From assembly GCA_963704805.1 (NCBI GenBank), contig CAVPHS010000002.1, positions 260,709 through 324,708 of the forward strand: a stretch of 64,000 nt of DNA, given 5' to 3'. The notes beneath the pieces were generated by a model, which was not told where the DNA came from, searched no databases, and saw only the letters and a list, made by a program, of their open reading frames with translations. Of the stretch, positions 8,127 to 56,957 are shown piece after piece. Origin of the DNA: an uncultured Gemmatimonadales bacterium (GTDB taxonomy: Bacteria; Gemmatimonadota; Gemmatimonadetes; Gemmatimonadales; GWC2-71-9). Every line of letters starts with the position of its first letter. Position 1 is the stretch's first letter. The translations under genes and the position numbers were made by a program.

Positions 8127-8199
8127 GGAGGGGAATCTACTCCCTGTTTACCGCCGTGCGTCTGTCTCCGGTTTCCGGTTTACCGTTGACACGTAAAAT

Positions 8200-8296
8200 G
8201 CCCCAGGCACCCCGCAACGAATCCCGACATCGTTTAGCGCTGCTCCCTGCGGGGGCCTGACGCGGTTCACGAGCGGAAAGCCTGCGGACCTGGGGC
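8200..8296 (-). ncRNA. ffs: Signal recognition particle RNA (small/4.5S type)
   Basis: The minus-strand RNA is GCCCCAGGUCCGCAGG...GUCAGGCCCC(CGCA)GGGAGCAGC...UGCGGGGUGCCUGGGGC. The 5' GCCCCAGG pairs with the 3' CCUGGGGC. The conserved domain-IV motifs GUCAGG and AGCAGC flank a short hairpin, and the RNA ends in AUUUU. It lies directly upstream of dnaX-ybaB-recR, the classic synteny. Ends are accurate to about 3 nt. Confidence 0.85.
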
Positions 8297-8302
8297 GTGT
8301 GA

Positions 8303-8332
8303 AATGTACAATGTCCAATGATCAATGATCAA
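8303..8332 (-). promoter_or_regulatory. Candidate sigma70-type promoter of ffs
   Basis: On the minus strand, TTGATC (8332..8327) is followed by an 18-nt spacer and TACATT (8308..8303). The predicted RNA 5' end (8296) lies 7 nt further downstream. Confidence 0.4.
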
Positions 8333-8358
8333 TGATCATTGGACATTGATCCTTGATC
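8311..8358. repeat. AT-rich heptad array (AATGATC x3, ATTGGAC, ATTGATC, CTTGATC) with an embedded 14-bp-arm palindrome
   Basis: The arms ATGTCCAATGATCA (8311..8324) and TGATCATTGGACAT (8333..8346) are perfect inverted repeats. The 7-bp periodicity runs over 8317..8358, and there are five GATC sites within 39 bp. Confidence 0.85.
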
Positions 8359-8368
8359 ATTCGGCCCG

Positions 8369-10093: not shown

Positions 10094-11126
10094 CGCAACG
10101 TCGCTCCGATGATCTGCGCCGCGCGCTCGACATCGGCGCGCGTGACGTCGAGATGGGTGACGGCGCGCAACCGCCGCGGGCCAAACGGCTCGACCCGTAC
10201 CCCGGCCTGCGTGAGTCGCTGCGCCGCCGCCTCGGCCGTGTCACCGTCGCGTAGCAAGTCGAGCATCACGATGTTCGTCTCCGGCGTGATCAGCCTGAGT
10301 GTCTTGCTGTCGGAGAGCAGCTCGGCGAATCGCTGCGCGTTGGCGTGATCTTCACCGAGACGATCGAGATTGTGGTCGAGCGCATAGAGCGCCGCGGCGG
10401 CGAGGATACCGGACTGGCGCATGCCGCCGCCCAGGCGCCGGCGAATCTCCCGGGCACGCGGCCGTCGTGCCGCCGGGACGCCGAGGCACGATCCCACTGG
10501 ACAACCCAGTCCCTTGGACACACTGACCATGACCGTGTCGGCGCCGCGGGCGAGCCGCGCCGGCGGCACTCCCTGGGCGACGGCGGCATTCCACAATCGT
10601 GCGCCGTCGAGGTGCACGGCCAGCCCGGCCTCGTGTGCCGCGCGCGTGACACTGTCGTACGCCGCGGCCGGCAACACCTTGCCGCCTGCCGCATTGTGCG
10701 TGTTCTCGATCGCGAGGGCAGTGATGCGCGGTACATGCGGCGACGCGGGTCGCAGCGCGGCGCGCACCAGGTCCGGTGTGAGCAGGCCGTCGGGCGTGGT
10801 GATCGGGCGGATCTGCGCGCCTGATAACGCGGCAATACCAGCCATCTCGTAGTGCACCAGGTGCGCAGTGGCTTCCAGCAGCACTTCGGTGCCGTGTTCG
10901 GCCACCAGCCAGATACCGGTCTGATTGGCCTGGGTCCCGGACGGAAAAAAGAGCGCGTCTTCGGTGCCGATCAGCTGGGCGATGCGCTCCTCGAGCCGGC
11001 GGGTCGTCGGATCGCCGTCGAGCACGTCGTCGCCGACTTCCGCTTCCGCCATGGCACGCCGCATCCCGGCCGACGGCCTGGTGACGGTGTCGGACCGGAG
11101 ATCGATCGGGGGGAGGGGGGAGTCAT
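10090..11126 (-). CDS. ltaE: Low-specificity L-threonine aldolase; the 5' end is apparently frame-disrupted in a C6-T-C6 tract
   Basis: The ORF-track part (10090..11064) begins MRRAMAEAEVGDDVLDGDPT...FFPSGTQANQ. The same frame continues upstream as IDLRSDTVTRPSAG, the conserved family N-terminus, but has no start codon before an in-frame stop. ATG 11126..11124 overlaps the yihY stop (ATGA) and is 1 nt out of frame. Confidence 0.8.
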
Positions 11127-11959
11127 CCGAGGCGCACGCGTTGCAGGCGACGCATGCGCATCAGGTCGTAGGTCTCCGCTATCTCGCCACCCAGCAGAAA
11201 GACGTAGGCCGTGTAGTAGATCCACAAAATGAACAGCAGGAAGGCGGCCAGGTTCGCGTCCGACGCCAGGCGGTCGAACGTCACGAAGCGTGCGACGTAG
11301 AGCGCATAGAGCCGCTTGGCGATTTCGAATGCGACCGCGCAGAACAGCGAGGCGACCAGCCCGGTGCGCCAGTAGATCCGGCGGCTCGGCAGAAACTTGA
11401 AAATCACGAAAAACAGCAGGGTACTGAAGACGAGCGGCAAGAACTGTCCCGTCAGCCCGCCGGCCGTCGAGGCGAACGCGTTCGCGAGGAACAACGCGCC
11501 GGCGACGAATACCATGGCGAGATCCATCAGCTTGGCGACGGGCCAGGGTCGATTCTCCTCCGTATCGAAGACCTCGTTCAGAGCCGCGCGCAGACCCCCG
11601 AACATACGAGTCGAAAACCACAGGAACAGGGGCGCGGCCAGCACCGTGAGGTGACCGCGGCGGGCGATGAGGTCACCCAGCTCTCGCTCGATGAAGCCGA
11701 ACGTGCCGGTCTCCCCACCGCCCGACTCGGGGAGGAAGCGCTGCAGAAGCTCGTGGATGTCCAGCTGATGGATGGCGAGCTGGTATTGCGCCAGATGTCC
11801 GACGACGGCGAGGACGAGACCGACGAAGGGAATCGTCGTGAGCAGAATGTCGAACGACAGAGCGCCGGCGAGAAAGGGAATGTTGTCTTCGAAGGCCGCC
11901 TCGAGCGTGCGCCGGACGACACCGGTGACGGTGCGGTGCCAGCCGCCTTCACCGTTCAC
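11123..11959 (-). CDS. YihY/BrkB (ribonuclease BN-like) family membrane protein
   Basis: 278-aa multi-pass ORF with the family-like motifs FLAGALSFDILLTTIPF and YYTAYVFLLGGEIAETY. Confidence 0.8.
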   Translation of the reverse strand: MNGEGGWHRTVTGVVRRTLEAAFEDNIPFLAGALSFDILLTTIPFVGLVLAVVGHLAQYQLAIHQLDIHELLQRFLPESGGGETGTFGFIERELGDLIARRGHLTVLAAPLFLWFSTRMFGGLRAALNEVFDTEENRPWPVAKLMDLAMVFVAGALFLANAFASTAGGLTGQFLPLVFSTLLFFVIFKFLPSRRIYWRTGLVASLFCAVAFEIAKRLYALYVARFVTFDRLASDANLAAFLLFILWIYYTAYVFLLGGEIAETYDLMRMRRLQRVRLG

Positions 11960-12324
11960 GCGAGCGGCTCGTCCTCCTCCTCCGGCGCGGGCGTAGCGGG
12001 ACGCGGGGCCCTACGGCGCCGCCGCGCCGCCTCGAGCCGGCGCCGCAGCTGCTCGCGTGTCGCGAGCTCCGGCTCTTCCTCCTCCCCCTCCTGGTCCTCG
12101 GCGTCGGCCCCTGCCTCCTCCTCTGCTTCCTGCAGCAGGCCGCGCACTTCGTCGACTTTCTCCTCAGCCAGCTCCTTCAGATTCCGCAGGCCCTTCGTCA
12201 CCTTGCGGCGCGTCGCCTCGCCCCGCTCGGTGGGGGCAAACACGAACCCCGCCACCGCGCCGAGCACGATACCGAACAGGAACGCGCCAAACCCTCCCCC
12301 GCCTCCCCCGCCACGGTCGCTCAT
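11956..12324 (-). CDS. YtxH-domain protein
   Basis: 122-aa ORF. The N-terminal GFGAFLFGIVLGAVAGFVFAPTERGEATRRKV matches the YtxH pattern (Gly-zipper helix + FAP..G.ETR). The tail is acidic coiled-coil. Confidence 0.7.
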   Translation of the reverse strand: MSDRGGGGGGGFGAFLFGIVLGAVAGFVFAPTERGEATRRKVTKGLRNLKELAEEKVDEVRGLLQEAEEEAGADAEDQEGEEEEPELATREQLRRRLEAARRRRRAPRPATPAPEEEDEPLA

Positions 12325-18236: not shown

Positions 18237-18307
18237 GACTTTAACACTACCCTCGCGCGCAAGGGCCGGTCGTGACTGGAGTCACAACCGACACGGTCGC
18301 GGCTGGA

Positions 18308-20787
18308 TCAGCCGCATTCCGAAAACCCGCAAACGTGACATTTCGCACATCCCTCGATGAACGCCAACTGCGAGCCACAATCCGGGCACGCACCGATGAA
18401 GTCTTGCTCCGGGCGGCGGGTCCCGAGGAGCGCCGCATCGCCGGCGGGGCCGCGCACGACCTCCGTCGGCGCGGCTGCGGCTGCCCCCCCCCCCCACCCA
18501 TGCTCAGCTCCTGCTGCACGCCCTGCTTCTCCTGCATCCATTTCTCGATCGCGATACCGATCGCGTCGGGCACCGACATCACCTTGTTCGGTCCGAGACC
18601 CACGGCGCGGTCGGAGGAGATCCCGCGCAGCTGGCGGTAGATCTCGGGCAGCGGCACGCCCGAGCGGAGCGCGAGCGAGATCAACCGCCCGATCGCCTCG
18701 ACGTCGGCCATCAGCGCGCCCCCCGCCTTGCCCAGGGACATGAAGACCTCGAACGGCTGCCCCTTGTCGTCCTCGGTGATCGTCACGTACATCGTGCCGA
18801 GCGGCGACTCGATGCGTCGAGTGGAGCCCTTGAGGAGGTCGGGGCGCGAGCGCTTGGCGCGACGCTGCAGGTTCTCCGCCTCCACGTCGTGCAACCGCTC
18901 CTTGGTCAGGTGCAGCTCGGTCTCGAGCTCAGCGATGCGGCTGAGTGCTTCGGTGAGGGCATCCTTCCCTGCCGGAGTACCGGTGCCGACTCCCTCCTGC
19001 ACCTTTTTCGCGGTCGAGCCGGTGGAGAGCACCTGGTTCTCGCGCGCCCCGTCGCGATAGACCGTCACGCCCTTGCAGCCGAGCTGGTAGGCGTAGCGAT
19101 AGATCTGCTCGACGTTCTCCTCGGTCGCGTCGTGCGCGAAGTTGCAGGTCTTGGAGATCGCCGAGTCGGTGAAGTCCTGGAACGCGGCCTGCATCTGGAT
19201 GTGCCACTCGGGCGTCACGTCGTGCGCCGTCACGAACACGCGCTGCCATTTCTGGGGCACGGCGTCGAAATGAATGTGGCCGGCTGCGGCGATCTGCTTC
19301 ATCAAGTCGTCCGAGTACCAGCCCTCGCGCCTGGCGATCGCGACGAAGTCCTCGTTCACGTCGGGCATCAGGACGCCCGCCTGATTGCGCATGAACGCAA
19401 CCGCGAACAGCGGCTCGATCCCCGACGAGCAGCCCGCGATGATCGAGATCGTCCCGGTCGGCGCGACGGTCGTCAGGTTACAGTTGCGCAGCTTCCGCAT
19501 CGGCCGGATCCGCTCACCGTTCGCGTTCCGCGCGCACGTCGCGTCAGGACCCCAAATCGAGCGCTCCCATTCGGCAAAGGTGCCGCGCTGCGCCGCGAGC
19601 TTCTCGGACGCGACCTTCGATTCCTCGTCGATGAATTGCATCAGCGTACGGCCAAGCGTGACGCCGGTCTCGGAGTCGTAGGGGATGCCGAGCCGCACCA
19701 GCAGGTCGGCCCACCCCATGATCCCGAGCCCGATCCGGCGGATTCGCTTCGCCAGATCGTCGATCTCGGCCAGGGGGTATTTGTTGGCGTCGATGACGTT
19801 GTCGAGGAAGTGCGTGCAGAGGTGTACGGCGGTGCGCAGGCCGTCCCAGTCGACATCCCCGTTCTTGACGAACAGGCCGACGTTGATCGAGCCGAGGTTG
19901 CACACGTCGTACGACAGCAGCGGCTGCTCGCCACAGGGGTTCGTGGCCTCGTAGCTGCCGAGGTGCGGCACGGGGTTGTAATGATTGGCGCGGTCGATGT
20001 AGAACACGCCGGGCTCGCCCGTCTTCCAGGCGCCGTGCACGATCTGCTTGAACACGTCGCGCGCGTCGAGCTGGCCCACCACCTTGCCGGTGCGCGGGTG
20101 GATCAAGTCGTACGACGTCCCCGCCGCGAGCGCCAGCATGAAGGCATCCGTTACAGCGACCGAAATGTTGAAATTCGTGACCTGCGTGAGGTCATCCTTG
20201 CAGTGGATGAAGTCGAGGACGTCGGGGTGATCGACGCGCAGAATCCCCATGTTGGCGCCGCGGCGCGTGCCGCCTTGCTTCACGACGTCGGTCGACGCGT
20301 CGTACAGCTTCATGAAGGACACCGGGCCCGAAGCGACGCCCATCGTGGAGCGCACGACGTCATTCTTGGGCCGCAGCCGCGAGAACGAGAACCCCGTCCC
20401 GCCCCCGGACTGATGCACGAGCGCCATGGCGCGCAGCGTGTCGTAGATGCCCGAGCGCCCGTTGGAGAGCGCGTCTTCCACTGGAAGCACGAAGCAGGCG
20501 GACAGCTGGCCAAGGGGACGGCCGGCGTTCATCAGGGTCGGCGAGTTCGGCATCCACACCCGGGTCGCCATCAGCTCGTAAAACGTCTCGGCGAGGCTCT
20601 CGACGGCGCGAGTGGAGGCGCCGTAGGTCTTGTCGGGCGCCGCGATGGTGCGGGCCACCCTCCAGAACAGGTCCTGCGGACGCTCGACGGGCTTGCCCTG
20701 ATCGTCCTTCACGAGATACCGGCGCTCGAGGACGGTCAGGGCGTTATTGCTCAAATCGAGAGGCGTACTAGGGGTGGAAGTAGTCAT
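18308..20787 (-). pseudogene. nrdJ: Class II (adenosylcobalamin-dependent) ribonucleotide reductase; the C-terminal Cys-rich tail is out of frame because of a G12 run
   Basis: The 846-aa ORF (18247..20787) is NrdJ-like throughout (LERRYL, NPCGEQPL, TVAPTGTISI). After ...SMGGGGG it turns into Arg/Pro nonsense. The frame one nt earlier reads AAAAAPTEVV...CPDCGSQLAFIEGCAKCHVCGFSECG* (stop at 18308). Confidence 0.9.
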
Positions 20788-20970: not shown

Positions 20971-21522
20971 TCACAAAGTTGGTCGCTCGAGCGGAAACGT
21001 CCCGCGACGATGTCGCTCGGCTTCCGCGACGTAGTGCTCCCACGTCCCCGTGATGCGCGCGCGCAGACCCGCGTCGACGTGACGCACGACACGCGCGGGC
21101 ACTCCCATCACCAGCGACCCGGGCGGGACCCGCATCCCCTCGGGAACCACCGCGCCCGCGGCGATCACGCTTCCCGTTCCCACGTGCACGTCGTTGAGCA
21201 GGATGGACCCCATCCCGATCAGACACTCGTCTTCCACAATACAGGCGTGCAGGATGACCCGGTGCCCCACTCCCACGCGCGCGCCGATCAGGGCGGGCTT
21301 TCCTTCATCAACATGCACGATCGTCGCGTCCTGCAGGTTGGTCGCTTCGCCGACCACGATGGGCGCCATGTCGCCCCGCAGCACCGCCTGGTACCAGACG
21401 CTGGAGCGCGGGCCGAGGGTGACATCGCCGAGCACGACCGCGCCGGGCGCGATGAACGCCGTGGGGTGGATCTTGGGCGTGAGGATTACTGCCGCGCCGG
21501 CTGGAACGGCCACTGCACCCAC
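20971..21522 (-). CDS. Gamma-class carbonic anhydrase-like / hexapeptide-repeat protein
   Basis: 183-aa ORF with left-handed beta-helix repeats (IAPGAVVLGDVTLGPRSSVWYQAVLRGD...IGARVGVGHRVILHACIV). The start is uncertain: ATG 21522 overlaps the upstream kinase gene by 37 bp. Confidence 0.85.
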   Translation of the reverse strand: MGAVAVPAGAAVILTPKIHPTAFIAPGAVVLGDVTLGPRSSVWYQAVLRGDMAPIVVGEATNLQDATIVHVDEGKPALIGARVGVGHRVILHACIVEDECLIGMGSILLNDVHVGTGSVIAAGAVVPEGMRVPPGSLVMGVPARVVRHVDAGLRARITGTWEHYVAEAERHRRGTFPLERPTL

Positions 21523-23399
21523 GCTTCGGTCGGCTCACCGTTCTTCTGAGCCGGATTCCAGCGCAGGTGCCTTGCCATATCGAGGGCGTCGTTGTTGAAG
21601 GTTTCCACATTCGAGGGCACGAACACGCGCGCTTCCAGCGTGGTGCCCTCGCGCGAGACTTTCACGAGCAGGATGGCTTGTCGCGGAAAGATCGGAGCGT
21701 CCGGAGACACAGCGATGAGCGTGGGCGACAGCGGCACGGGACGACTGTCGAAACAGAGATTGTCCTGGTTGTACGCCGGTCCGAATTGATCGCAGGGGCC
21801 GGCGGCGTCCTCGCCGTTGCTCTCCATGACCACGCGCATCGTGAACGTTTGACCCGGGGTGATCGTCACCTGGTGGTCGTAGGTCAGGTAGCCCGCAGCC
21901 CGCACCGTCAGACGATGAACTCCGGACGGGAGGTCGACCTGGTTGCCGCTGACCGGCTGACCCTCGATAGCGACGCGCGCCCCGCGCGGCAGCCCCTGCA
22001 GCACCAATCGCCCTGGGGGACCAGAGGGGGGCGGCGGCGGTGGACCGACGATCGCGGTGCGACTGGTATCGACCCGGGGCGTGTCGACCGCCACGGCGGC
22101 GCCAGCAGAATCACGGTGGGCGGCAGTATCCCTCGGGGTCGCGAGCGTCGAATCGGGGCGCAGTGCGTCACTGCCTTTCGCGAAGATCAGGCCCTGCTTG
22201 TACGCGTAGAACCCACCGCCCCCGAACACCGCCCCTACGATGAGGAGCCAGAGCAAGAGACCCGCCAGGACAGAGCGACGGGGCTGTGCCGCGGCAACAG
22301 CGGGAGCGGCGCCGGGGGGGGTACTGCTGCCACCGGGGACCTGTGGACGCGTCCCCGTCGCGCGCGGCAGTGGCGTGGTGGGCGCCGACGCGAGGCGCGC
22401 GCCGGCCATCGCCGGCAGCGCCTGCGTCGCGTCGGTCGTGAACGTCACGGAGCGGCTACCCTCCAGCACGCCGATCAATTCGTCGGCGTTTTGGAAACGC
22501 TGCGCTGGTGTCTTCGCCATCATCTTCCGAATGATTTCGAACAGCGTCCGCTTCTCGGGACTGTCGAGCGGCGGCGTGGGGACCTCCTCCATGATGTGCT
22601 TGTAGCCGATTGAGAAGGAATCCTCACCGTCGAACGGCACGCTGCCCGTGAGACATTGATAGGCAACGACGCCGAGCGAATAGATGTCGCTGCGGCCGTC
22701 CAGCGGCTGCGCCTTGGCCTGCTCGGGACTCATGTAATGGGGCGTCCCGATCGACATCCCGGTGCCCGTGAGCTTGCCACCCGACACCGCCTTCGCGATC
22801 CCGAAGTCGGTCACCACCGCGTGCCCGTGCTCGTCGAACATGATGTTGTCGGGCTTGATGTCGCGATGGACGATTTCCTTCTTGTGCGCGTACGACAGTG
22901 CGCGGGAAACCTCGGCGAGGATGCGGCGGATTTCGAGCGGCGGCAGGGTACCGCGGGTCGCGAGGATACTCGACAGCGGTTTGCCGCGCAGGAACTTCAT
23001 GACGAAGTAGATGATGCGGCCCGATTTGCCGACGCGGTAAATCGGAATGATGTTGGGATGCTCAAGCTTCGCCGACGTGCGGGCTTCGCGCTGGAAGCGC
23101 TCGACGAACTCCCGGTCGAACGCGAGTGAGAAGGGCAGCACTTTGATGGCGACTTCGCGGTCGAGCTGTTTCTCCGTCGCCTTGAAGACGATCGCCATGC
23201 CGCCGCGGCCGAGCTCCTCGAGGATTTCGTATTCCTCGCTGAGCTCCTGGCGCACCATGTCGATTTCCGAGATGTCCGGCGCGTCGGCGCCCGGCCCTCC
23301 GCGGACGCCGGTCGGCGTCGTGACGGTCAGGTCGAGGCCGCAGGAATCGCAGAACTTCGCGGTATCCTTATTCTGGGTGCCGCAGCGGGAGCAATACAA
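21486..23399 (-). CDS. Ser/Thr protein kinase with N-terminal zinc ribbon, TM helix, PEGA domain and a TonB-C-like C-terminus
   Basis: 637-aa ORF. It has MYCSRCGTQNKDTAKFCDSCG and Hanks kinase motifs (AIKVL, HRDIKPDNIM, DFGIAK, SPEQA). The TM helix is LAGLLLWLLIVGAVFGGGGFYAY and the PEGA-like segment is LVLQGLPRGARVAIEG...VHRLTVRAAGY. The C-terminal ~80 aa are TonB-C-like. Confidence 0.9.
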   Translation of the reverse strand: MYCSRCGTQNKDTAKFCDSCGLDLTVTTPTGVRGGPGADAPDISEIDMVRQELSEEYEILEELGRGGMAIVFKATEKQLDREVAIKVLPFSLAFDREFVERFQREARTSAKLEHPNIIPIYRVGKSGRIIYFVMKFLRGKPLSSILATRGTLPPLEIRRILAEVSRALSYAHKKEIVHRDIKPDNIMFDEHGHAVVTDFGIAKAVSGGKLTGTGMSIGTPHYMSPEQAKAQPLDGRSDIYSLGVVAYQCLTGSVPFDGEDSFSIGYKHIMEEVPTPPLDSPEKRTLFEIIRKMMAKTPAQRFQNADELIGVLEGSRSVTFTTDATQALPAMAGARLASAPTTPLPRATGTRPQVPGGSSTPPGAAPAVAAAQPRRSVLAGLLLWLLIVGAVFGGGGFYAYKQGLIFAKGSDALRPDSTLATPRDTAAHRDSAGAAVAVDTPRVDTSRTAIVGPPPPPPSGPPGRLVLQGLPRGARVAIEGQPVSGNQVDLPSGVHRLTVRAAGYLTYDHQVTITPGQTFTMRVVMESNGEDAAGPCDQFGPAYNQDNLCFDSRPVPLSPTLIAVSPDAPIFPRQAILLVKVSREGTTLEARVFVPSNVETFNNDALDMARHLRWNPAQKNGEPTEAWVQWPFQPARQ

Positions 23400-25730: not shown

Positions 25731-28547
25731 TTAGAAGTCGGCGGCAAAGGCGCCGTACACCTGGGCCGATCCCGTGGCCGGCTGCGCGACGCCCACGCGC
25801 ACCCGGAGCGGCAGATCGTAGCTCACGGTCACATCGCCAACGAGCTCGGCGCCGAAGGAGCGGAGGCGGTGGAGCTGGGCCGGCGCACCAGGATTCCAGG
25901 CGTCGCCGAGATCACCAAACACGGCGAGGGAAAACTTGTCCCCGCCAAACGGCAGGTGACCGAGCGATTTGCCGACGAGAGCGAGGGGCACGCGATACTC
26001 GACCGTGGCCGTTGCCGCGCGACGCCCTGTGACCGCCCCCGGCGCATAGCCGCGCACCGGAAACGAGCGGAACGTGCCGATCGTCTGCGCAAACGCCAGC
26101 TGCGCGGCGCCCGAGGACACACCCCCGACGGAGAGGTGATCGGGTAACGGCCCGTCCATCGCACCGATCGCCAGGCGAGCCGCGACGACAGGATATGCGA
26201 ATCCGATCCGCGGGCCGAATCGCAGATAGAAATTGCCCCGGGCGCGCACCTCGTTTAGCCAGCGGGACGTTCCCTGCTCGCCGCGATAGCGGTACAGAAA
26301 GCTCGCCGACGCGCCGTCCTGCAGCGACATCGCGAGCGGCGCCGACACCGCCGATCCAAAGGAAAGACTCGCCGTGCCGCCAACCAGGTCGTTCGAGCGG
26401 CAACCGGTACAGATGTCGGCAAGCGCGGTGTCGGGCTCGGAGACGTATCTCCTTCCTTCATATTCGGCGGCGACACGCAACGAAACGAAGCTGCGCCAGC
26501 GGTGGGCCAGGAAGGTGGCGCCGATGCCGGCATCGCGCTGCTCCCGGGACACCACGTGGCCGGTGCTGTCGATGCCGATCAGCGTCCAGTGATTCGAGAT
26601 GGAGAAGTCGAGCGTCGGATCGCCCAGCGCATTGCTCAACGCGAACAGCGACCCCTCCGCGCGCAGCGGCGCACCCCCCCCCGATACGAGCGCGGTGGCG
26701 AAATAGGCGTAGCGACCTACCGCGTCACCGCCCGCGGTGCCGGCGCCGACGAAGCGGCCTGCGGCGGCGGCATCGAGCCACAGCGGAATCCAGAAATACG
26801 GACGCAACGACGGCCAGGACGCGTACCCTGTTTCCCGCACCGCGACACGGGGCGCGGAATCGAAGGGCGTCGTGGCCGCCATCGCGTCAGGGGGTCGCGG
26901 TGACGCGAGCGGCGCGACCGCGCGCAGCTCCCAGCCCTGAGGCCCAAGCGTCGTGAAAAGAATCCGTCCGTCGGCGAGTACGGCGGGTGAGCGTGCGCCG
27001 AGCGGCTCCGCGGTGATCCGGCTGATGCCACCTTCTTCGTTCCAAAGGTGGATCTGCGGAAAGCCGCCGGCATCCGTGACGAACAACACGCCACCCAGCC
27101 CCCAAACGGGGTCGGCCACGATGTCGGCTGGCGGGCTGATGGCCGACAGCGATTGTGGCAGCCCTGCGCGCCAGCGCACCAGCTGCCACTGTCCATTCTG
27201 GTGACGAGGAGCGACGACCCAGCGGCCGTCCGGCGACGGTACGACGTCGCCCCACGTCGCACCCGGCAGATCGATGACGGGCGCCGAGAGCAGCGGAGCC
27301 ACCGCGGGGGCAATGCCGCCGTCGCCGAGCTTGAGCGCAACGAGCGCGCCGCCGCCACTGCGCGGCTCGAGCAGGCGCGCGGAGTCGGTCATGCGTGTCC
27401 AGTCTCCGCCCGGCGACCAGCGCCACAGATCACTGCGCACTGTCCAGCGATCGGTGAACTCGAGCTGCGCAACGATCAGGGTGTCGCCCAACCAGTCGTA
27501 ACTGACCTGGCCGTTGACGCGGTGGGAGCGCTGCACTGTCCCGCTCCGCGCGTCGACGACGCGCAGATGGCGTGCGTCACGGCCGTCATCGTAGACATAG
27601 GCGACGCTGCCGCCGTCCGGCGACACGCGCGGCACGGGCTCGGTGCGGAGCTGGCCGGCAATGAGCCGGCTCTGTGTGGCCGACTCGTTCGGGGCGGATG
27701 GGGTGGCGGGGAGCGCTGCCGCTGCGATCGCGCCCTGCCATGTCTCAAACAACGACCGCGGCGCGCCGACACCTTTGAGCGGCCGGCCAACGCGGAACGG
27801 GATCAGCTGGCCGGCCGTCCGCTCCGCGTACCGTGGGACGAGCGAATCGCCCGCAGTTTGCGAGACGTATTCCCAAAACCGGCTGCCGTACGCATAGGGG
27901 GTGATTCCGTCGGCCCAGCGCGTGAAGAGGAGCGCATCGTACGGCGAGCGGGCTTCGCTGGCGAGCGCGTCCGCGCCGACCGCCTGCCGGTGAAAGCTCC
28001 CCTCCGCACGCCCGCCCATTGTGAAGCGAGACTCGTAATAGGTGGCAATTCCTTCGGTCACCCAGCTTGGCTGGTACTGATTGGGAAACAGGCCGGGGAG
28101 CCGGCCGAATACGGTTTGCAGCGCGCTCCAAATTCCGCGCGTTCGATCGAGATGAAAGACGTGCGTCAGCTCGTGCACGATGACGAGTCGCTGCCAGCTG
28201 TCGTAGCTCTGGAGCGCGGGATCGGTGCTGGGCGGGACGAGCAGGATGGTGAAGCGGTTGGAGGGATAGGTCGACGTAAATCCGTTGGCCGCGTCGAAGT
28301 CGTCGGACACCGTCAGGTCCACGATGCCGCGTGGTGGATGGAGCTCGGTCGACAGTAATCGGTACGCGCGTTCGGCTTCCCTCGCGGCTTCGAGCGCTTG
28401 CGCGTGATTGGCGGGGCGGAAGTGGACGCGGAAATGCTCGGTATGTAACGTGCGCCAACTGCCTGACGGATTCACTTGAGCGGCGGCGGGGGTGGCAAGC
28501 AGAAGGGCAAGCAACAACGTGCGTGGTGCGTGGTGCGTGGGCATCAC
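25731..28547 (-). CDS. Outer-membrane fusion protein: HExxH metallopeptidase-like region + PD40/TolB-like propeller repeats + Omp85-type C-terminal beta-barrel
   Basis: 938-aa ORF. The signal peptide is MMPTHHAPRTLLLALLLATPAAAQ. VIVHELTHVFH is present. SPDG-type repeats include VSPDGGSVAYVY and PSPDGRWVV. The C-terminus VRGYAPGAV...EYRVPL...FGDLGDAW...GAFAADF ends in an aromatic residue, as in beta-barrel OMPs. Confidence 0.7.
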   Translation of the reverse strand: MMPTHHAPRTLLLALLLATPAAAQVNPSGSWRTLHTEHFRVHFRPANHAQALEAAREAERAYRLLSTELHPPRGIVDLTVSDDFDAANGFTSTYPSNRFTILLVPPSTDPALQSYDSWQRLVIVHELTHVFHLDRTRGIWSALQTVFGRLPGLFPNQYQPSWVTEGIATYYESRFTMGGRAEGSFHRQAVGADALASEARSPYDALLFTRWADGITPYAYGSRFWEYVSQTAGDSLVPRYAERTAGQLIPFRVGRPLKGVGAPRSLFETWQGAIAAAALPATPSAPNESATQSRLIAGQLRTEPVPRVSPDGGSVAYVYDDGRDARHLRVVDARSGTVQRSHRVNGQVSYDWLGDTLIVAQLEFTDRWTVRSDLWRWSPGGDWTRMTDSARLLEPRSGGGALVALKLGDGGIAPAVAPLLSAPVIDLPGATWGDVVPSPDGRWVVAPRHQNGQWQLVRWRAGLPQSLSAISPPADIVADPVWGLGGVLFVTDAGGFPQIHLWNEEGGISRITAEPLGARSPAVLADGRILFTTLGPQGWELRAVAPLASPRPPDAMAATTPFDSAPRVAVRETGYASWPSLRPYFWIPLWLDAAAAGRFVGAGTAGGDAVGRYAYFATALVSGGGAPLRAEGSLFALSNALGDPTLDFSISNHWTLIGIDSTGHVVSREQRDAGIGATFLAHRWRSFVSLRVAAEYEGRRYVSEPDTALADICTGCRSNDLVGGTASLSFGSAVSAPLAMSLQDGASASFLYRYRGEQGTSRWLNEVRARGNFYLRFGPRIGFAYPVVAARLAIGAMDGPLPDHLSVGGVSSGAAQLAFAQTIGTFRSFPVRGYAPGAVTGRRAATATVEYRVPLALVGKSLGHLPFGGDKFSLAVFGDLGDAWNPGAPAQLHRLRSFGAELVGDVTVSYDLPLRVRVGVAQPATGSAQVYGAFAADF

Positions 28548-30409
28548 CGCGCCATCTCTCGCAGAAAATCTTCGATCCCTTTCGCGACGCCACGCGCATA
28601 CCGCAGCCGGCCTTCAGGACTCGCGAGCAGCGCTTCCTGCTCCGGGACCATCATGAACAAGCCTTCGGTCAGCGCCGAAGGCATCCACGGGTCCCGCACC
28701 AGCGCGTAGTCCCCGCGCCCCATGCCGAGGTCGCGCGCGCCGAGCTCGGTCACGAGCGCGCGGTCGAGCGCGCGCGCCAGCGCGGCGCTGCGTGGGTGGA
28801 AGTAGTAGACACTGGTGCCGTTGTTGACGAATGGGTTCACGCCATCCGGGAGCGCGTTGGCGTGAATCGAGACCAGTACGTCGGCATCGTGTCGCTCGGC
28901 GAACTGTGTCCTCGGAAAGAGGTCGATCGGTGTGGAGTCGGTGCGCGTGAGCAGCACGGTGGCGCCGCGCTGCTCGAGCAGCGTTTTCGCCTGCTGCGCG
29001 ACAGCCAGCGTCGCGACGGGCTCCCACAATCCCGACGGTCCTTTGGCACCGAGGGGCGGGTGGCCGGGGTCGAGGACAATGGTACGGCCGGCCAGCGGCC
29101 GGCGGGAATCGATCACCGGCGGCCGGCGAATTTCGAGCACGAGATCGCGAGCGCTCCAGCGCGCGCGGTAGCCCCAGACATGCCCGGACAGCGTGAGCGT
29201 GATCGTCACCTCGTCGCTCGTCGGCTGGGCATAGCTCATCCGCGTCACGTAGGGATCGGTGCCGCCGTGTTGCATCCAGTTGATGTCCGACGCGACGCCG
29301 TACAATCGCAGCGTCAGGCTGCGCTCTTCTTCTTCGACCTTGAACGGCACGCGCGCCGGCAGGGACACGTGAAGTACGAGCGAGCGCGTGCCCGCGACGA
29401 GCCGCACGGAGCCCACGTTGCCGCCAGGCGGCGGCGTCCCTGCCGCGAGCGGCACGACGTCGCTCGAGTTCACCCACGCCACCGCGCCACGCGACAGCTG
29501 CAGCCGCGTTTGGCTGCTCCAACGGCCGCTGGCGACCGCCGTGGTGCCAAGGGGGAAGAACCAGTTGTAGGTGCCGTACGGAACGGCCTTACCGACGGTC
29601 AAGCTGTCGGACTTCCCGGTGTGCGCGGTGTCATCGTTCAGGACCACGACCGCCGGATGACTGCGATCGATGGTGTCGACCACGAGAGGCCAGACGGCGC
29701 GCGCGGTGTCCGTTCCTACGATCGCTTCCACGATCGCGTCGCACAGCGGTTGCGCCGGAAGCCAGGCGACGTAGCGGTCGGCGGCCGGTGGAAGCCGATA
29801 GGCCGTGGTATCCGTGCCGAACGCGCGGACCCCCCACGCCGGCTCTTCGGGCAACGTATCCGGCACGAGCCACACGGCATCCTTCTGCCCCTCCATGCGC
29901 AGGCGGACGCGCGCGCCGGGTGTGGCGCGAACCGACAGCCGAATCCCCTCTCCCGCCGGGAAGGCCAATGAATCGGTCGGCGTGAAGCTCGTCGTGTCGA
30001 TCCAGGCGGCGGCGCCTGGCAGTGGACGAAACAGCTGCGCGACCGGTGCGACGAACGTCGTCTCGCGTTGCTCTGCTCCCGTGCCGGCGCGTGCGACGAT
30101 GCGAAACCGCGCCATGCTCAATAAGTCCGGCTGCAGCGGCACCCACGCCAGCCAGCTGCCACTCGCGTGCACCGTCACCGGACGGTCATTGACCGTGAGC
30201 GCGACATCGCCGCGCCCCCGTCCTACGCTGCCGAAAATGAAGGATGAGTCCTGGGCCTGAATCGCCTCGGCCGTGTCGGGATAGACGACGGTGATGTGAA
30301 GGGAGTCACGAACGGATGATGGAGATGGGGGACTGGAGACGGGGGACGGGGCTCGCGCTGCGCAGCCCAATGTTGCCGCGACAAAAAGCGCGGCACAAAC
30401 GAGTCGCAT
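28544..30409 (-). CDS. N-acetylmuramoyl-L-alanine amidase (Amidase_3) lipoprotein with a large N-terminal domain
   Basis: The ORF track extends to 30856. ATG at 30409 gives the lipoprotein signal MRLVCAALFVAATLGCA. The C-terminal domain reads IVLDPGHPPLGAKGP...LVSIHANA...GTSVYYF...ALTEGLFM. Confidence 0.85.
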   Translation of the reverse strand: MRLVCAALFVAATLGCAARAPSPVSSPPSPSSVRDSLHITVVYPDTAEAIQAQDSSFIFGSVGRGRGDVALTVNDRPVTVHASGSWLAWVPLQPDLLSMARFRIVARAGTGAEQRETTFVAPVAQLFRPLPGAAAWIDTTSFTPTDSLAFPAGEGIRLSVRATPGARVRLRMEGQKDAVWLVPDTLPEEPAWGVRAFGTDTTAYRLPPAADRYVAWLPAQPLCDAIVEAIVGTDTARAVWPLVVDTIDRSHPAVVVLNDDTAHTGKSDSLTVGKAVPYGTYNWFFPLGTTAVASGRWSSQTRLQLSRGAVAWVNSSDVVPLAAGTPPPGGNVGSVRLVAGTRSLVLHVSLPARVPFKVEEEERSLTLRLYGVASDINWMQHGGTDPYVTRMSYAQPTSDEVTITLTLSGHVWGYRARWSARDLVLEIRRPPVIDSRRPLAGRTIVLDPGHPPLGAKGPSGLWEPVATLAVAQQAKTLLEQRGATVLLTRTDSTPIDLFPRTQFAERHDADVLVSIHANALPDGVNPFVNNGTSVYYFHPRSAALARALDRALVTELGARDLGMGRGDYALVRDPWMPSALTEGLFMMVPEQEALLASPEGRLRYARGVAKGIEDFLREMAR

Positions 30410-30454
30410 GTGGCGCAAGCTAGCGGTCGACAATAGATTGGGCCACCTGACTTT

Positions 30455-31417
30455 ATGAGCTCCTCTCTGAACGCGTGTCAATATTGCGGCCGGAAAAACG
30501 AGGCCAGCGCGCAATTCTGCTCCGACTGCGGCAAGCCGCTCACCAAGGCCGCCGCGATGCGGGCCGCTGTCGCGGCGGGAGGTGGTGGCGGGGGCGGCAT
30601 GGTGCGCACCAGCGACCCGCCGGGCGCCGCGGGGACGGCGGACGCGGCGTGCCCCGTCTGCGGTCATGTCCCCCTTTCCGCTCCCCCCGGCGCGGTCCAG
30701 GCTGGTCGTGACAGCCACGACAGACGGTCGAGTTCCGATAGACGCGCCAATTACTCCCTCACATTGATTCTGGTTTCCGAAATGGCCGCCGAACTGGGGC
30801 GGTTCGAGCGCAAGCAGGCGACCACGACCATTGGCAGAACCGACGGCGATCTTCAATTTCCCGACGATTCATTTCTCTCGCCGCTGCACGCCAAGATCTC
30901 GTGGGAAGAGGGGCGCCTCGAAGTCCGCGATCTGGGAAGCCGCAACGGCACCTGGGTTTTTCTGGACGCGCCGTATCGACTGACCGACGGCGACCTCATT
31001 CTCATCGGATCGCAGGTGCTGCGGTTTCGGCGGCTGGGCTACCCCGGCCCCCACGCGACCGAAGCCGACTCCACCAAGCGCATGGGCAGCATGGTGCCCA
31101 GCGCCGACATCGCCAGTCTCACGCAGCTCCGCGCCGACGGCAGCTCGCGTGACGTCATTCAGCTCTCGCCGGGGCGCGATGTCCATATCGGCCGCGAGCG
31201 CGGTGACTGGATTTTTCCCTACGATCCGTCGATGAGCGCGCAGCATGCGACCGTGCGGTCCGAAGACGCGGACTTCGTGCTGGTGGATGACCACAGCCGC
31301 AATGGCGTCGCGATCGCGGCGCGCGGCGCGATGCCGCTGCAGCATGGCTCGCGCATCATGGTCGGCGACAAACTGCTCCGCCTCGAGCTTCCCGGAGGTG
31401 GAGGCGGGGCACCCTGA
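30455..31417 (+). CDS. Zinc-ribbon protein with two FHA domains
   Basis: 320-aa ORF. The zinc ribbon is CQYCGRKNEASAQFCSDCG. FHA1 reads TTIGRTDGDLQFPDDSFLSPLHAKI...RDLGSRNGTWV. FHA2 reads VHIGRERGDWIFPYDPSMSAQHATV...DDHSRNGV. Confidence 0.85.
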   Translation: MSSSLNACQYCGRKNEASAQFCSDCGKPLTKAAAMRAAVAAGGGGGGGMVRTSDPPGAAGTADAACPVCGHVPLSAPPGAVQAGRDSHDRRSSSDRRANYSLTLILVSEMAAELGRFERKQATTTIGRTDGDLQFPDDSFLSPLHAKISWEEGRLEVRDLGSRNGTWVFLDAPYRLTDGDLILIGSQVLRFRRLGYPGPHATEADSTKRMGSMVPSADIASLTQLRADGSSRDVIQLSPGRDVHIGRERGDWIFPYDPSMSAQHATVRSEDADFVLVDDHSRNGVAIAARGAMPLQHGSRIMVGDKLLRLELPGGGGGAP

Positions 31418-32457
31418 TGGCCATGTTCGGACGCTCGCCCAAGATCCGCGTCGAGGTCTTCGCGAAGACCGATCTGGGCCGTACGCGCGACCATAACGAG
31501 GACCGCTACCTCGTCGCCGATCTCACGCGTAAGTCCTCCTCGCTGCAGCCCGACGTGCGCCAGCACGACGTCGGCCCGCGCGGCACGCTGCTCGTCGTCG
31601 CCGACGGTATGGGAGGCGCGGCGGCCGGGGAGCTGGCGAGCCAGATGGCGACCGATACGATCTACGCGCATCTCGAAAAAACATGGAACGCGGAAGACGA
31701 GGCGACGCCGCAGCGCTTTGCCTACCGGCTCAAGGAAGCGGTCGAGGTCGCCAACGCGAGCATTCACGCGCACGCCAAAGCACACCCCGAAGTCCGCGGC
31801 ATGGGCACGACGACGACCGCTGCCGGGGTGCTGAACGATCACCTCTATCTGACGCAGGTCGGCGACAGTCGCGCGTACCTGATTCGCGGCGGCGAGGCAC
31901 ACCAGATCACCAAGGATCAGTCGCTCATGCAGCGGCTCGTCGAAGCAGGCGAGCTGACGGAAGAGGAGGCCGCGCACAGCGAACGTCGCAACATCATCCT
32001 CCAGGCGCTCGGCCCCGATGCCAAGGTGAAGGTGGATCTCACGCACCAGGAGCTACGCCGCGGCGATATCCTCGTGCTCTGCTCCGACGGGCTGTCGGGA
32101 CAAGTAAAGAAGGAGGAGATCGCGAAGATCGTCGCCTCCGCGCCTGACCTCGCGGCCGCCTGCGACCAGCTCGTGGCGCTCGCCAATGCGCGCGGCGGTC
32201 CCGACAACATCACGGTCGTCGTGGCGCGGTTCGACGGGGACGGCCTGCGCTACTCCGGCAGCGGGCCGAGCGAGGATGTGGGCCATCAGATTTACCCGCT
32301 GATCGATACCGAGACGAGCACCGAGCCCGTCCCTATATATAAAGGAAGCCGCCCGCCCGTCCCGAACAAGGAGAACCGCAGCCGCACGCGCACGCTCGTG
32401 CTCGTCGCCGTCGCGGTCCTCGCCGCTCTCGCCTGGTACCTCACGCGACAGCAGTGA
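31417..32457 (+). CDS. PP2C-family Ser/Thr phosphatase with a C-terminal TM anchor
   Basis: 346-aa ORF with TDLGRTRDHNEDR, VADGMGG, GTTTTAA and DNITVVV motifs. The C-terminal helix is TLVLVAVAVLAALAWYL. Its ATG overlaps the upstream stop (ATGA-type junction). Confidence 0.9.
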   Translation: MAMFGRSPKIRVEVFAKTDLGRTRDHNEDRYLVADLTRKSSSLQPDVRQHDVGPRGTLLVVADGMGGAAAGELASQMATDTIYAHLEKTWNAEDEATPQRFAYRLKEAVEVANASIHAHAKAHPEVRGMGTTTTAAGVLNDHLYLTQVGDSRAYLIRGGEAHQITKDQSLMQRLVEAGELTEEEAAHSERRNIILQALGPDAKVKVDLTHQELRRGDILVLCSDGLSGQVKKEEIAKIVASAPDLAAACDQLVALANARGGPDNITVVVARFDGDGLRYSGSGPSEDVGHQIYPLIDTETSTEPVPIYKGSRPPVPNKENRSRTRTLVLVAVAVLAALAWYLTRQQ

Positions 32458-33782
32458 AAGCCCAGTTCACGTTTCTCTCTGGGGCCCGCGCGGGACAGAT
32501 CGAAGCCTTCCGCAAGGGTTACATCGGCCTCGGTCGCCATCCCCTGTCGGACGTGCGCTTCGACGCCGAGCGCGATCTCGATGTCTCATCACGTCACGCG
32601 GCGATCGTTCGCAGAGCCGATGGCTTCGTGCTCCAGGATCTCGGCAGTCGCAACGGGACCTTCGTGAATGGCCGGCAGATCAGCGCCGAAACCGAGCTGC
32701 ACAGCGGTGACGTGATTGGGTTCGGCGCCGGCGGCCCGGCCCTCGAGTTCCAGATCATCGATGTCGAGGGCGATGCTCCAGTGACGGGCGTGGCGCAGCC
32801 ACGCGAGCTCGTCCGCGCGGCGCCGCGGCATAGCACCGGAATGCGCATCGCCGCCGAGGTCGCGCGGCAAACCGCACAGCTGCGCCGCACGACCAAGATT
32901 CTGATCGTGGTCCTGCTTATCGCCGCCACTGGCTTCACGTGGGTGCAGTGGGATGGCCGGCGTCGCGCGCGCGAGGCCGACACCCTCTATCGCACCGAGC
33001 TGCAGGGTGTGCGTGACGCGCTGCGAGGCTCACTGGAGGAGACCGGGCGCCTGCGGCGCGAGCTCGAGGCTGCGACGGGCAATGCCGCATCGGTATCGCA
33101 GCTGCGCGCCCAGTTGGACTCCGCCGAGCGCCGCCAGCGCGCGATCGCGACGGTCGATTTCCGCGCGATCTCGCACAAGAATCAGGACGCCGTCGCCATC
33201 GTCCTGGTGGAGTTCAGCAACGGTGAGCGATTCAGCGGCACGGCGTTCAGCGTGGACTCGCTGGGGACGATGGTCACCAACAAGCACGTCCTCATCGGGG
33301 ACGACGGCACCAAGAGTCCCAGACGGATCGGCGTCATCTTCTCGGGCAGCACCCAGTTCTGGCGCGGGCAGATGCTTGGCGTTGCACCGGATGCCGACAT
33401 CGGCGTGTTCCGGGTCTTGATCAAGGGCGTCACACCCCAGGTCGTGGCTCTCGCGCGCGATCGCGGGGGGCTCGAGCGGGGCGATCCCGTCGCGATCCTC
33501 GGCTATCCACTCGGGTTCGACCTGCCGATGGACGCCCAGGGCGGCCAACCAATCGCCGACCCGACGCTGACGGTGGGGGCCGTGAGCAAGGCGTTGTCAT
33601 CGGTCGTGCAAGTGGACGCCTACGGTGCGCCAGGATCGTCGGGCAGCCCCATCTTCGATCGTGAGGGACGGGTGATTGCTGTACTTTATGGTGGTGAGCG
33701 AGAATCAAACGGGAAGATCATTTTCGGGGTGCCTGCGTATCTTGCTGCGGATTACTTGAAGAGCCTCAACCTCCCCCACTAG
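32454..33782 (+). CDS. FHA domain - TM helix - trypsin-like (S1) serine protease fusion
   Basis: 442-aa ORF. The FHA domain reads IGLGRHPLSDVRFDAERDLDVSSRHAAI...QDLGSRNGTFVNG. The TM helix is ILIVVLLIAATGFTWV. The protease part has GTAFSV...VTNKHV (His) and GAPGSSGSPIF (Ser). Confidence 0.85.
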   Translation: MKAQFTFLSGARAGQIEAFRKGYIGLGRHPLSDVRFDAERDLDVSSRHAAIVRRADGFVLQDLGSRNGTFVNGRQISAETELHSGDVIGFGAGGPALEFQIIDVEGDAPVTGVAQPRELVRAAPRHSTGMRIAAEVARQTAQLRRTTKILIVVLLIAATGFTWVQWDGRRRAREADTLYRTELQGVRDALRGSLEETGRLRRELEAATGNAASVSQLRAQLDSAERRQRAIATVDFRAISHKNQDAVAIVLVEFSNGERFSGTAFSVDSLGTMVTNKHVLIGDDGTKSPRRIGVIFSGSTQFWRGQMLGVAPDADIGVFRVLIKGVTPQVVALARDRGGLERGDPVAILGYPLGFDLPMDAQGGQPIADPTLTVGAVSKALSSVVQVDAYGAPGSSGSPIFDREGRVIAVLYGGERESNGKIIFGVPAYLAADYLKSLNLPH

Positions 33783-54616: not shown

Positions 54617-55424
54617 AGGGGTAGTCGGGCTCCTCGTACCCATCCGGCTTCCCCCGCTTGGGCAACTTCACAGCTTCGCGCGGCACTTTCTTGTAGGGAA
54701 TCTGGCTGAGCAGATGGGTGATCAAATTGAGGCGCGCCCGCCGCTTGTCGTCGGACTTCACCACGTACCACGGCGCCCATGCGGTGTCGGTCGCCTTGAA
54801 CATGTCGTCCCGCGCTCGCGAGTAGTCGTACCACTTGCCGTACGATTCGAGATCCATGGGCGAGAGCTTCCAGATCTTGCGCCCGTCGTCGATCCGTGAT
54901 TCGAGGCGGCGGGTTTGCTCTTCCATGCTCACCTCGAGCCAGTACTTGAGCAGGATGATGCCGGACTCCACGATGATCTTTTCCATGGCCGGCGCCAATT
55001 GAAGGAAGCGCTCAACCTCCTCCTCGGTGCAGAACCCCATGACGCGCTCGACGCCGGCGCGGTTATACCAGGAGCGGTCCCAGATCACGATCTCGCCGGC
55101 TGCCGGCATGTGGGGCAGGTAGCGCTGGATATACATCTGGCTCTTCTCCCGCTCGGTGGGCGAGGGGAGTGCGATGACCCGGAACACTCGCGGGCTGACG
55201 CGCTCGGTGATCGCCTTGATCGTGCCGCCCTTGCCGGCGCCGTCACGCCCTTCGAACACGATACAGATCTTTTTGCCCTTGGCTTTCACCCATTCCTGGA
55301 CCTTCACGAGCTCGACGTGGAGCTTGGCCAGCTCCCTGTCGTATTCCTTCCCCGTCAGCTTGTTCTTGTCCTCGTGGTTCGAGTCCTTTGCGCGCTTCTT
55401 GTCACCCATGGGTTCTGTCCTCAT
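54591..55424 (-). CDS. ppk2: Polyphosphate kinase 2
   Basis: 277-aa ORF with FEGRDGAGKGGTI (Walker A), IWDRSWYNR and the PPK2 lid region. Confidence 0.9.
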   Translation of the reverse strand: MRTEPMGDKKRAKDSNHEDKNKLTGKEYDRELAKLHVELVKVQEWVKAKGKKICIVFEGRDGAGKGGTIKAITERVSPRVFRVIALPSPTEREKSQMYIQRYLPHMPAAGEIVIWDRSWYNRAGVERVMGFCTEEEVERFLQLAPAMEKIIVESGIILLKYWLEVSMEEQTRRLESRIDDGRKIWKLSPMDLESYGKWYDYSRARDDMFKATDTAWAPWYVVKSDDKRRARLNLITHLLSQIPYKKVPREAVKLPKRGKPDGYEEPDYPFKFVPEEF

Positions 55425-56956: not shown

Positions 56957-56957
56957 C

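Follow-up and report, generated by a model that had tools for sequence, protein, structure and literature searches.

An FHA-protease operon of Gemmatimonadota, reduced by loss of its kinase gene, suggests inside-to-outside control of cell-wall proteolysis

Introduction

How could phosphorylation of a threonine inside a bacterial cell control a protease on the other side of the membrane? The question is raised by three coupled genes in a 64-kb stretch of DNA (64,000 nucleotides, hereafter the window) from an uncultured Gemmatimonadales bacterium (contig CAVPHS010000002.1). The first gene encodes a soluble protein with a double zinc ribbon and two FHA domains, here called ZnFHA2. The second encodes a PP2C phosphatase anchored in the membrane by its C-terminal tail. 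In the third protein, an FHA domain is joined through a single transmembrane (TM) segment to a trypsin-like protease domain of family S1; we refer to it as the FHA-TM-S1 protease.

Cell-wall growth and secretion are both regulated by modules made of Hanks kinases, PP2C phosphatases and FHA proteins. The FHA readers known from these modules serve as adaptors in the cytoplasm or belong to secretion machines. In the present case, the reader is predicted to be fused across the membrane to an active-looking protease of the HtrA type and is firmly tied to a kinase and a phosphatase. If the mechanism proposed below holds, it would provide a direct route from cytoplasmic phosphorylation to the control of periplasmic proteolysis. 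It would also be the first functional handle on envelope regulation in the Gemmatimonadota, a common but little-studied soil phylum.

The original prediction, made from the letters of the window, treated the trio as a three-gene phospho-threonine (phospho-Thr) module with the protease as its effector and a kinase 7 kb away as its input. Here we compare the locus with its relatives. The operon is not a chance assembly: orthologous loci are found in 53 Gemmatimonadota genomes, and the protease family spans 288 clusters at 50% identity (E <= 1e-30). We show that the window trio is a reduced derivative of a four-gene operon typical of the phylum, from which the cognate kinase gene has been deleted. 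The operon lies beside cell-wall amidase genes, a position that suggests inside-to-outside control of cell-wall proteolysis without proving it.

Results

The three genes lie on the forward strand: ZnFHA2 at 30455..31417 (320 aa), PP2C at 31417..32457 (346 aa) and the FHA-TM-S1 protease, which has a GTG start, at 32454..33782 (442 aa). Open reading frame coordinates and searches of Pfam and NCBIfam bear out both the genes and the domains originally assigned to them. The proposed translational coupling can be read directly in the DNA. The ZnFHA2 stop codon TGA (31415-31417) and the PP2C start codon ATG (31417-31419) have one A in common, and the protease GTG at 32454 overlaps the PP2C TGA at 32455-32457, so that the two genes share the 4 bp from 32454 to 32457.

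Is this trio a unit in other genomes? We scanned one genome per species and mapped the window proteins onto the 53 related loci (designated by L numbers), all of which belong to Gemmatimonadota. In these relatives the operon normally has four genes in the order ZnFHA2, a Zn-ribbon Hanks kinase, tail-anchored PP2C and FHA-TM-S1 protease. We have coined the name STK2 for the kinase gene between ZnFHA2 and PP2C. STK2 is kept in 42 of the 43 related loci with enough upstream DNA, a count that includes L005, assigned by eye, and ZnFHA2 orthologues stand at the same place in nearly all related loci. Locus L002 has the complete arrangement, with all four genes overlapping start to stop. Its STK2 (7471..8967; 1497 bp, 498 aa) comprises an N-terminal Zn-ribbon, a Hanks kinase domain, a TM segment and a periplasmic tail of about 110 aa; the periplasmic domain of STK2 is TPR-like.

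The window lacks this kinase. A tblastn search of the 64-kb window found no STK2 homologue and no trace of one. At the junction left by the deletion (31412..31419, forward strand), where the ZnFHA2 TGA overlaps the PP2C ATG, the window reads GGCACCCTGATGGCCATG; in L002 the kinase gene sits between GGCACCATGA and AACTGATGGCTATG. The window sequence GGCACCC-TGATGGCCATG fuses the end of the 2xFHA gene to the junction of kinase end and PP2C start as it is found in L002. STK2 is absent, but the window keeps orthologues of the remaining three genes in unchanged order; its locus is therefore a reduced derivative of the four-gene operon, and the three-gene module is the derived state. The trio is conserved as a unit in relatives, and the conditions named beforehand as refuting the original prediction (opposite topology, an incomplete triad, a trio not conserved) do not refute it; the unit, however, normally has four members.

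The missing kinase is not an assembly error, since a 91%-identical relative has the trio with exactly this junction in two independent assemblies (L055 and L056). In another locus, L001, the segment between the 2xFHA and PP2C genes (8679..8964) holds a remnant of STK2 of about 72 codons, consisting of the Zn-ribbon and a fragment with HRDLKPDN; its end is shifted, and parts of its interior are deleted. In an unbootstrapped neighbour-joining tree, window plus L055 and L001 belong to one subclade, of which the other members are STK2-positive. Decay of STK2 in L001 was probably separate from the loss in the window and L055, a conclusion that is tentative given such a tree. L141 was considered as a second kinase-less case and rejected, as the locus lies at a contig end with indels.

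With its cognate kinase gone, the trio might be a decaying relic that no longer forms a working circuit and is heading for pseudogenisation. The deletion of STK2 in the window and L055/L056 and its degradation in L001 fit this idea, as does the absence from the window of the NagZ, AnmK and MurQ genes found downstream in relatives. Yet the three reading frames are intact, with all catalytic and binding residues, and the kinase-less form is maintained in the 91%-identical relative. Between the window and L055, PP2C is 98% identical and the dN/dS values of the three genes are 0.19, 0.20 and 0.32, figures consistent with purifying selection that continued after the loss of STK2, although low dS (0.04-0.09) limits the power of the estimate. 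Moreover, a second conserved kinase remains nearby. We regard decay as highly unlikely.

What kind of protein is the putative effector? Pfam recognizes an FHA domain at aa 26-91 (E = 1.9e-18) and Trypsin_2 at aa 262-410 (E = 1.6e-17), with the TM segment between them at about aa 146-166. The histidine in TNKHV and the serine in GSSGSP had been picked out as catalytic, and alignment now completes the triad: His278 (nt 33285-33287), Asp315 in DADIG (33396-33398) and Ser396 (33639-33641), the second Ser of GSSGSP, align with the triad of Mycobacterium tuberculosis HtrA1. Among 48 family members of 32-59% identity, conservation of each of the three is complete or reaches at least 90%. In the same 48 sequences the FHA residues R28, S45, H48 and N67 are invariant or nearly so.

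We built an AlphaFold2 monomer model of the protease on the 48-sequence alignment (mean pLDDT 87.9). It predicts an FHA sandwich (aa 1-102), a disordered linker (107-132), a single long helix that contains the TM segment (130-206), two further helices (211-246) and a two-barrel, HtrA/DegS-like protease domain (247-442). A Foldseek search of the PDB with the protease domain returned DegP, DegS-deltaPDZ, HtrA1, DegQ and AlgW, with a target TM-score of about 0.8 and 20-23% identity. Pfam detects no PDZ domain in the protein; in the model nothing follows the protease domain, which runs to aa 442, about 45 residues past the catalytic Ser.

The orientation of this protein in the membrane is central to its possible function. 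A single hydrophobic TM segment is present in 42 of the 48 family members, its flanks carry a net charge of +3.1 on the N-terminal and +1.0 on the C-terminal side across the family, and no N-terminal signal peptide was found in the family. Phospho-Thr is made only in the cytoplasm. From the single TM segment, the positive-inside bias, the lack of a signal peptide and the site of phosphorylation we infer that the FHA domain lies in the cytoplasm and the protease domain in the periplasm, which supports the topology first argued for this protein.

The two companion proteins also retain their functional residues. In ZnFHA2, a Zn-ribbon/DZR match covers aa 6-29 and a second CPVCG follows at about aa 66-70. 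The FHA domains lie at about aa 124-185 and 240-311 (Pfam FHA, E = 5.9e-23). Both keep the GR / SxxH / SxNG phosphate-binding motifs, as GR, SPLH and SRNG in the first and GR, SAQH and SRNG in the second. The phosphatase matches Pfam PP2C_2 (E = 8.4e-17) and passes the Stp1/IreP model (NCBIfam NF033484) with 245.4 bits against a cut-off of 230. Its catalytic domain spans about aa 17-270, and the metal-binding motifs NED, DGMGG, DG and DN can be read by eye in the translation. The C-terminal TM segment is at aa 326-342 (nt 32392-32442).

What, then, does the operon keep company with? Immediately upstream, and divergent from it, is a gene on the reverse strand (28544..30409) for a 621-aa lipoprotein identified by Pfam and NCBIfam as an N-acetylmuramoyl-L-alanine amidase of the Amidase_3 family. 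About 440 aa at its N-terminal end form a region of unknown fold. The translation begins with a lipoprotein-type signal peptide, which would put the amidase in the periplasm along with the protease domain. As originally described, the amidase ATG at 30409 and the start of ZnFHA2 at 30455 are separated by 45 bp (30410..30454). Even in relatives with protein identities of only 70-80% this spacer is almost unchanged, and its conserved blocks are ATGTGGCGCAAGCTAGC and GCAATAGATTGGGCCACCTnACTTTATG. Because of this conservation we presume that it is a shared regulatory element. A scan with the sigma-70 consensus gave no promoter-like site, the spacer included, a result that is uninformative for this phylum. 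Terminator-like sites, equally uninformative here, numbered 2 against 1.9 expected by chance.

Beyond the amidase, on the same reverse strand, is a gene for an exported protein of 938 aa (25731..28547) that overlaps the amidase gene by 4 bp and is co-transcribed with it on account of that overlap. A HELTH (HExxH) motif lies at aa 125 of the protein, whose last residues are ...FAADF. It has no match in Pfam or NCBIfam, and its orthologue in L139 gives faint PD40 and weak Tricorn_N matches. It may be a fusion of metalloprotease, beta-propeller and outer-membrane parts.

The same surroundings recur elsewhere. Amidase_3 is divergent from the operon in 29 of the 37 loci with enough DNA, and also in the distant loci L057, L058, L060, L064 and L139. 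Next in line there is often a gene for the 938-aa protein, for a GWxTD/TPR protein or for both, and then come a kinase with Zn-ribbon, PEGA and TonB_C domains, a hexapeptide transferase and the gene for ribonucleotide reductase. In the window that kinase, the one 7 kb away, lies at 21486..23399 on the reverse strand and is the sole remaining Hanks kinase; Pfam recognizes Zn-ribbon, Pkinase, PEGA and TonB_C domains, which with the TM segment behind the kinase domain give an unusual architecture. The claim that it belongs to the neighbourhood is borne out, as this TonB_C-type kinase is found upstream on the reverse strand in at least 23 of the 32 loci with enough DNA, and in L139 and L140 as well. 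Its 3' end overlaps the hexapeptide-transferase gene (20971..21522, reverse strand) by 37 bp, and similar overlaps are seen in relatives such as L013.

More distant relatives of the protease (32-40% identity) were found by scanning a library of 50%-identity clusters. A metagenome scan with a 12-sequence alignment, one of whose patterns was the generic FHA motif, supplied L059-L067 as full-length relatives; about 70 other loci were ignored. All named matches are from Gemmatimonadota, which may partly reflect the seeding of the search. Down to 32-40% identity STK2, PP2C and the FHA-protease are always adjacent. L057 and L058, the deepest of the amidase-linked loci, lack ZnFHA2. In L057-L061, L063, L064, L033, L034, L139 and L140, genes for NagZ (GH3), AnmK and a SIS-domain protein converge on the operon from downstream. 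We take the SIS-domain gene to be MurQ; AnmK and MurQ have peptidoglycan-recycling functions. Searches of the 64-kb window with tblastn found no homologue of NagZ, AnmK, MurQ or TssM.

In two of the distant loci, L054 and L067, the triad directly follows tssK-tssL-tssM of a type VI secretion system (T6SS). The kinase and PP2C thus accompany the protease even in T6SS clusters, and for this reason the unit under selection is the triad of kinase, phosphatase and FHA-protease, whose usual company is genes of cell-wall hydrolysis and recycling. Two genes from the triad in L054, and flanked by CsgG-like genes, is a gene (10322..12049, reverse strand) for an FHA-TM-SLT protein, in which a lytic transglycosylase is attached to a predicted cytoplasmic FHA domain. 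Its existence suggests that FHA-anchored periplasmic hydrolases form a wider class.

These two loci also raise the possibility that the module is a threonine phosphorylation switch of the PpkA/PppA/Fha type, serving a T6SS encoded elsewhere in the genome. The FHA domains do match the TagH model weakly. However, that model (TIGR03354) has a cut-off of 120.25 and gives scores of 28.4 and 54.5 bits, neither the 64-kb window nor any amidase-linked locus yielded a T6SS gene, and the word 'protease' appears nowhere in a 2026 review of T6SS accessory genes. We give this explanation almost no weight. The contrast with T6SS clusters drawn in the original prediction holds for the window, where Pfam scans of the roughly 30 larger reading frames found no T6SS, RodA or PBP family, but it does not extend to the distant members of the family. 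As had been noted, the window carries no RodA or PBP gene by these scans; they found no PASTA domain either.

A second explanation would dispense with signalling. The protein could be an inner-membrane, HtrA-like protease of general envelope quality control, whose FHA domain is a tether that keeps it near kinases or a module that works independently of phosphate, with neighbours inherited by descent. Its protease domain is indeed nearest to the DegP/DegQ/HtrA fold. The region from the ribonucleotide reductase gene through hexapeptide transferase and kinase to the operon is syntenic across the order and may reflect slow genome rearrangement, and in 8 of 37 loci the amidase is not at the divergent position. 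HtrA quality-control enzymes, however, use PDZ domains to sense substrates, and the protein has none. Nor does this explanation sit well with invariant phosphate-binding residues in the FHA domain, or with a kinase and PP2C co-transcribed with the protease in every lineage, even when the triad lies in a T6SS cluster. On these grounds we think it unlikely.

If the FHA domains do read phospho-Thr, where could it be made? FHA domains prefer pT-x-x-[ILV], and Hanks kinases recruit FHA proteins through a juxtamembrane pThr, as does M. tuberculosis PknB. STK2 has a juxtamembrane Thr that is conserved in 39 of 41 orthologues within an otherwise variable segment; L, V or I follows at +3 in 40 of the 41, and E or D precedes at -3 in 35. 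The motif can be written [ED]-x-x-T-Q-[LV]-[LVI]. The TonB_C-type kinase has DATQALP in its juxtamembrane region (aa 323-329, nt 22413-22433), and T-x-x-[LMI]-P is present in all eight of its complete orthologues. PP2C has a motif, YPLIDTETSTEPVPIY, in the linker between catalytic domain and membrane anchor (aa 293-308, nt 32293-32340). The form YPLIDTETSTEPVP[VI]Y or [ST]TEPVP[VI]Y is found in 52 of 64 PP2C orthologues, is absent from the most distant and is conserved better than the surrounding catalytic domain. As judged from their sequences, the three motifs fit the FHA preference and are candidate docking sites.

The kinase motifs invite yet another explanation, in which the protease acts back on the kinases. 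Docked through its FHA domain, it would clip the periplasmic sensor domain of the kinase and thereby end the signal or lock it, as happens in regulated shedding. Both kinases have the periplasmic domains (TPR-like in STK2, PEGA/TonB_C in the other) and the conserved juxtamembrane Thr motifs that such feedback calls for. The reduced lineages apart, the protease is always encoded with STK2, and one of its close structural matches, DegS, is the site-1 protease of a membrane signalling protein. In the window lineage, however, the protease is kept under purifying selection although STK2 is gone; STK2 therefore cannot be its only substrate. Feedback on the kinases seems to us decidedly unlikely.

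Otherwise the scanned reading frames of the window belong to ordinary metabolism or encode glycoside hydrolases. The only other cell-wall hydrolase noticed, 22 kb away, is an MltF-like protein with solute-binding and SLT lytic transglycosylase domains (55421..56998, reverse strand). The gene for a class II ribonucleotide reductase (18247..20787, reverse strand) has an apparent frameshift near its 3' end, around 18480-18520, at a G-rich run. Its Cys-rich tail CPDCGSQLAFIEGCAKCHVCGFSECG is out of frame with the body, which continues into an Arg-rich tail. The frameshift could be a sequencing error or real.

Discussion

We propose that the operon carries a phospho-Thr signal from the inside of the cell to the outside. 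A membrane Hanks kinase would autophosphorylate its conserved juxtamembrane Thr, and the cytoplasmic FHA domain of the protease would bind the phospho-Thr. The two FHA domains of ZnFHA2 would bind phospho-Thr as well, as a scaffold or as a competitor. Docking would localize the DegS-like, PDZ-less protease domain on the periplasmic face and probably oligomerize it through the long TM and coiled-coil helix. The protease, positioned or activated in this way, would cleave cell-wall proteins, with the divergently encoded amidase lipoprotein as the prime candidate substrate. PP2C would reset the system and may itself dock to an FHA domain through the conserved TEPV motif in its linker. The central step, control of the protease by phospho-Thr binding, is one that we infer from the way the parts are joined. 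We put forward the scheme as a whole tentatively, with a likelihood that comes near to even but falls short of it.

Which kinase would supply the input in this genome? Since STK2 has been deleted, the FHA domains could receive their signal only from the TonB_C-type kinase (21486..23399). The statement that all parts of the circuit are present is thus half right: a second kinase is nearby, but the cognate one is gone, and the circuit is complete only if the TonB_C-type kinase substitutes for it. The deletion also has its use: it sets a circuit that lacks its cognate kinase beside the complete one, a natural comparison that comes ready-made.

Several points weigh against the scheme, besides the limited power of the dN/dS estimate. 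The amidase is linked to the operon by synteny alone, and the link is missing in the 8 of 37 loci without a divergent amidase and in the T6SS-linked loci. The T-x-x-hydrophobic motifs are short, so that the functional argument is their conservation within variable linkers only. To our knowledge, no HtrA-type enzyme has been established to change its periplasmic activity in response to cytoplasmic binding. Finally, because the window is without the cognate kinase and without NagZ, AnmK and MurQ, the circuit here may work differently or weakly.

Comparison with known systems

Fusions of FHA and trypsin domains have already been named as such by automatic annotation. In full-text searches of the literature we found no functional or comparative study of FHA-protease fusions; the only mention was in a 2008 survey of prokaryotic serine proteases, which lists an FHA-FHA-Trypsin protein from Bacteroides thetaiotaomicron, NP_811686.1, in one line, as a lone example and without giving a function or genomic context (PMC2605481). 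That protein resembles ours in architecture, with FHA N-terminal to a trypsin-like protease, but it has two FHA domains. A paper on conflict systems that features FHA and trypsin-like domains was rejected as unrelated.

The nearest relatives by fold are the HtrA proteases (MEROPS S1C), such as E. coli DegS and DegP and human HtrA1, which share the chymotrypsin fold and the His-Asp-Ser triad. DegS is likewise held in the inner membrane by one N-terminal TM segment with its protease domain in the periplasm, the arrangement that we predict here. Members of the HtrA family, however, have at least one C-terminal PDZ domain, which this protease lacks, and it scores only 29-39 bits with HtrA-type NCBIfam models whose cut-offs are 416-800. 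HtrA proteases form trimers or larger assemblies through the protease domain; in our monomer model that domain is preceded by a helical stretch at aa 130-246. The protein has instead of a PDZ domain an N-terminal extension of about 145 residues, predicted to be cytoplasmic, that contains the FHA domain. The inputs would differ accordingly: DegS and HtrA sense periplasmic peptide C-termini, whereas the signal here would be cytoplasmic phospho-Thr.

The actinobacterial cluster FhaA/FhaB(FipA)-PstP-RodA-PbpA-PknA-PknB has in common with our operon co-transcribed FHA proteins, a membrane PP2C, a Hanks kinase and a link to the cell wall, and its FHA domains, too, read kinase-made pThr. CwlM, a protein of the Amidase_3 family, is part of the mycobacterial PknB-CwlM-FhaA circuit. 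The window amidase, by its signal peptide, is an exported lipoprotein and not a cytoplasmic kinase substrate. By the Pfam scans the window is without RodA, PBP and PASTA, and its effector is an FHA-fused protease. Model scores fall below the cut-offs as well, with 61 and 48.5 bits against 125 for FhaB and 330 bits against 450 for the TonB_C-type kinase with PknB_PASTA. The T6SS pathway PpkA/TagE-PppA/TagG-Fha1/TagH follows the same logic of kinase, PP2C and FHA reader. TagH, however, is cytoplasmic and without a protease, whereas here an FHA-protease occurs with no T6SS genes in the window or the amidase-linked loci. Because the defining features of both are missing, we place the module in neither system.

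Periplasmic proteases are known to control peptidoglycan hydrolases: MarP (Rv3671c) acts on RipA, Prc with NlpI on MepS, and CtpA, with LbcA, offers a third case. In each a membrane-anchored or periplasmic serine protease acts on a cell-wall hydrolase, and the analogy is only to the logic proposed here. Our protease scores 34.1 bits with the MarP model (NF033740; cut-off 250) and has a single TM segment in place of the four N-terminal TM helices of MarP. None of MarP, Prc and CtpA is known to have a cytoplasmic phospho-reader or a co-encoded kinase and phosphatase.

A broader idea follows from setting the protease beside the FHA-TM-lytic transglycosylase. FHA-TM-hydrolases could be a general inside-to-outside device by which cytoplasmic Ser/Thr phosphorylation positions or activates periplasmic cell-wall cutters, with a protease processing an amidase here and a lytic transglycosylase beside a T6SS elsewhere. 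The kinase input would be exchangeable, given that the cognate kinase has been lost in this lineage. We consider this generalization rather unlikely. Such a device would be a phosphorylation-driven counterpart of the control of amidases by FtsEX-EnvC.

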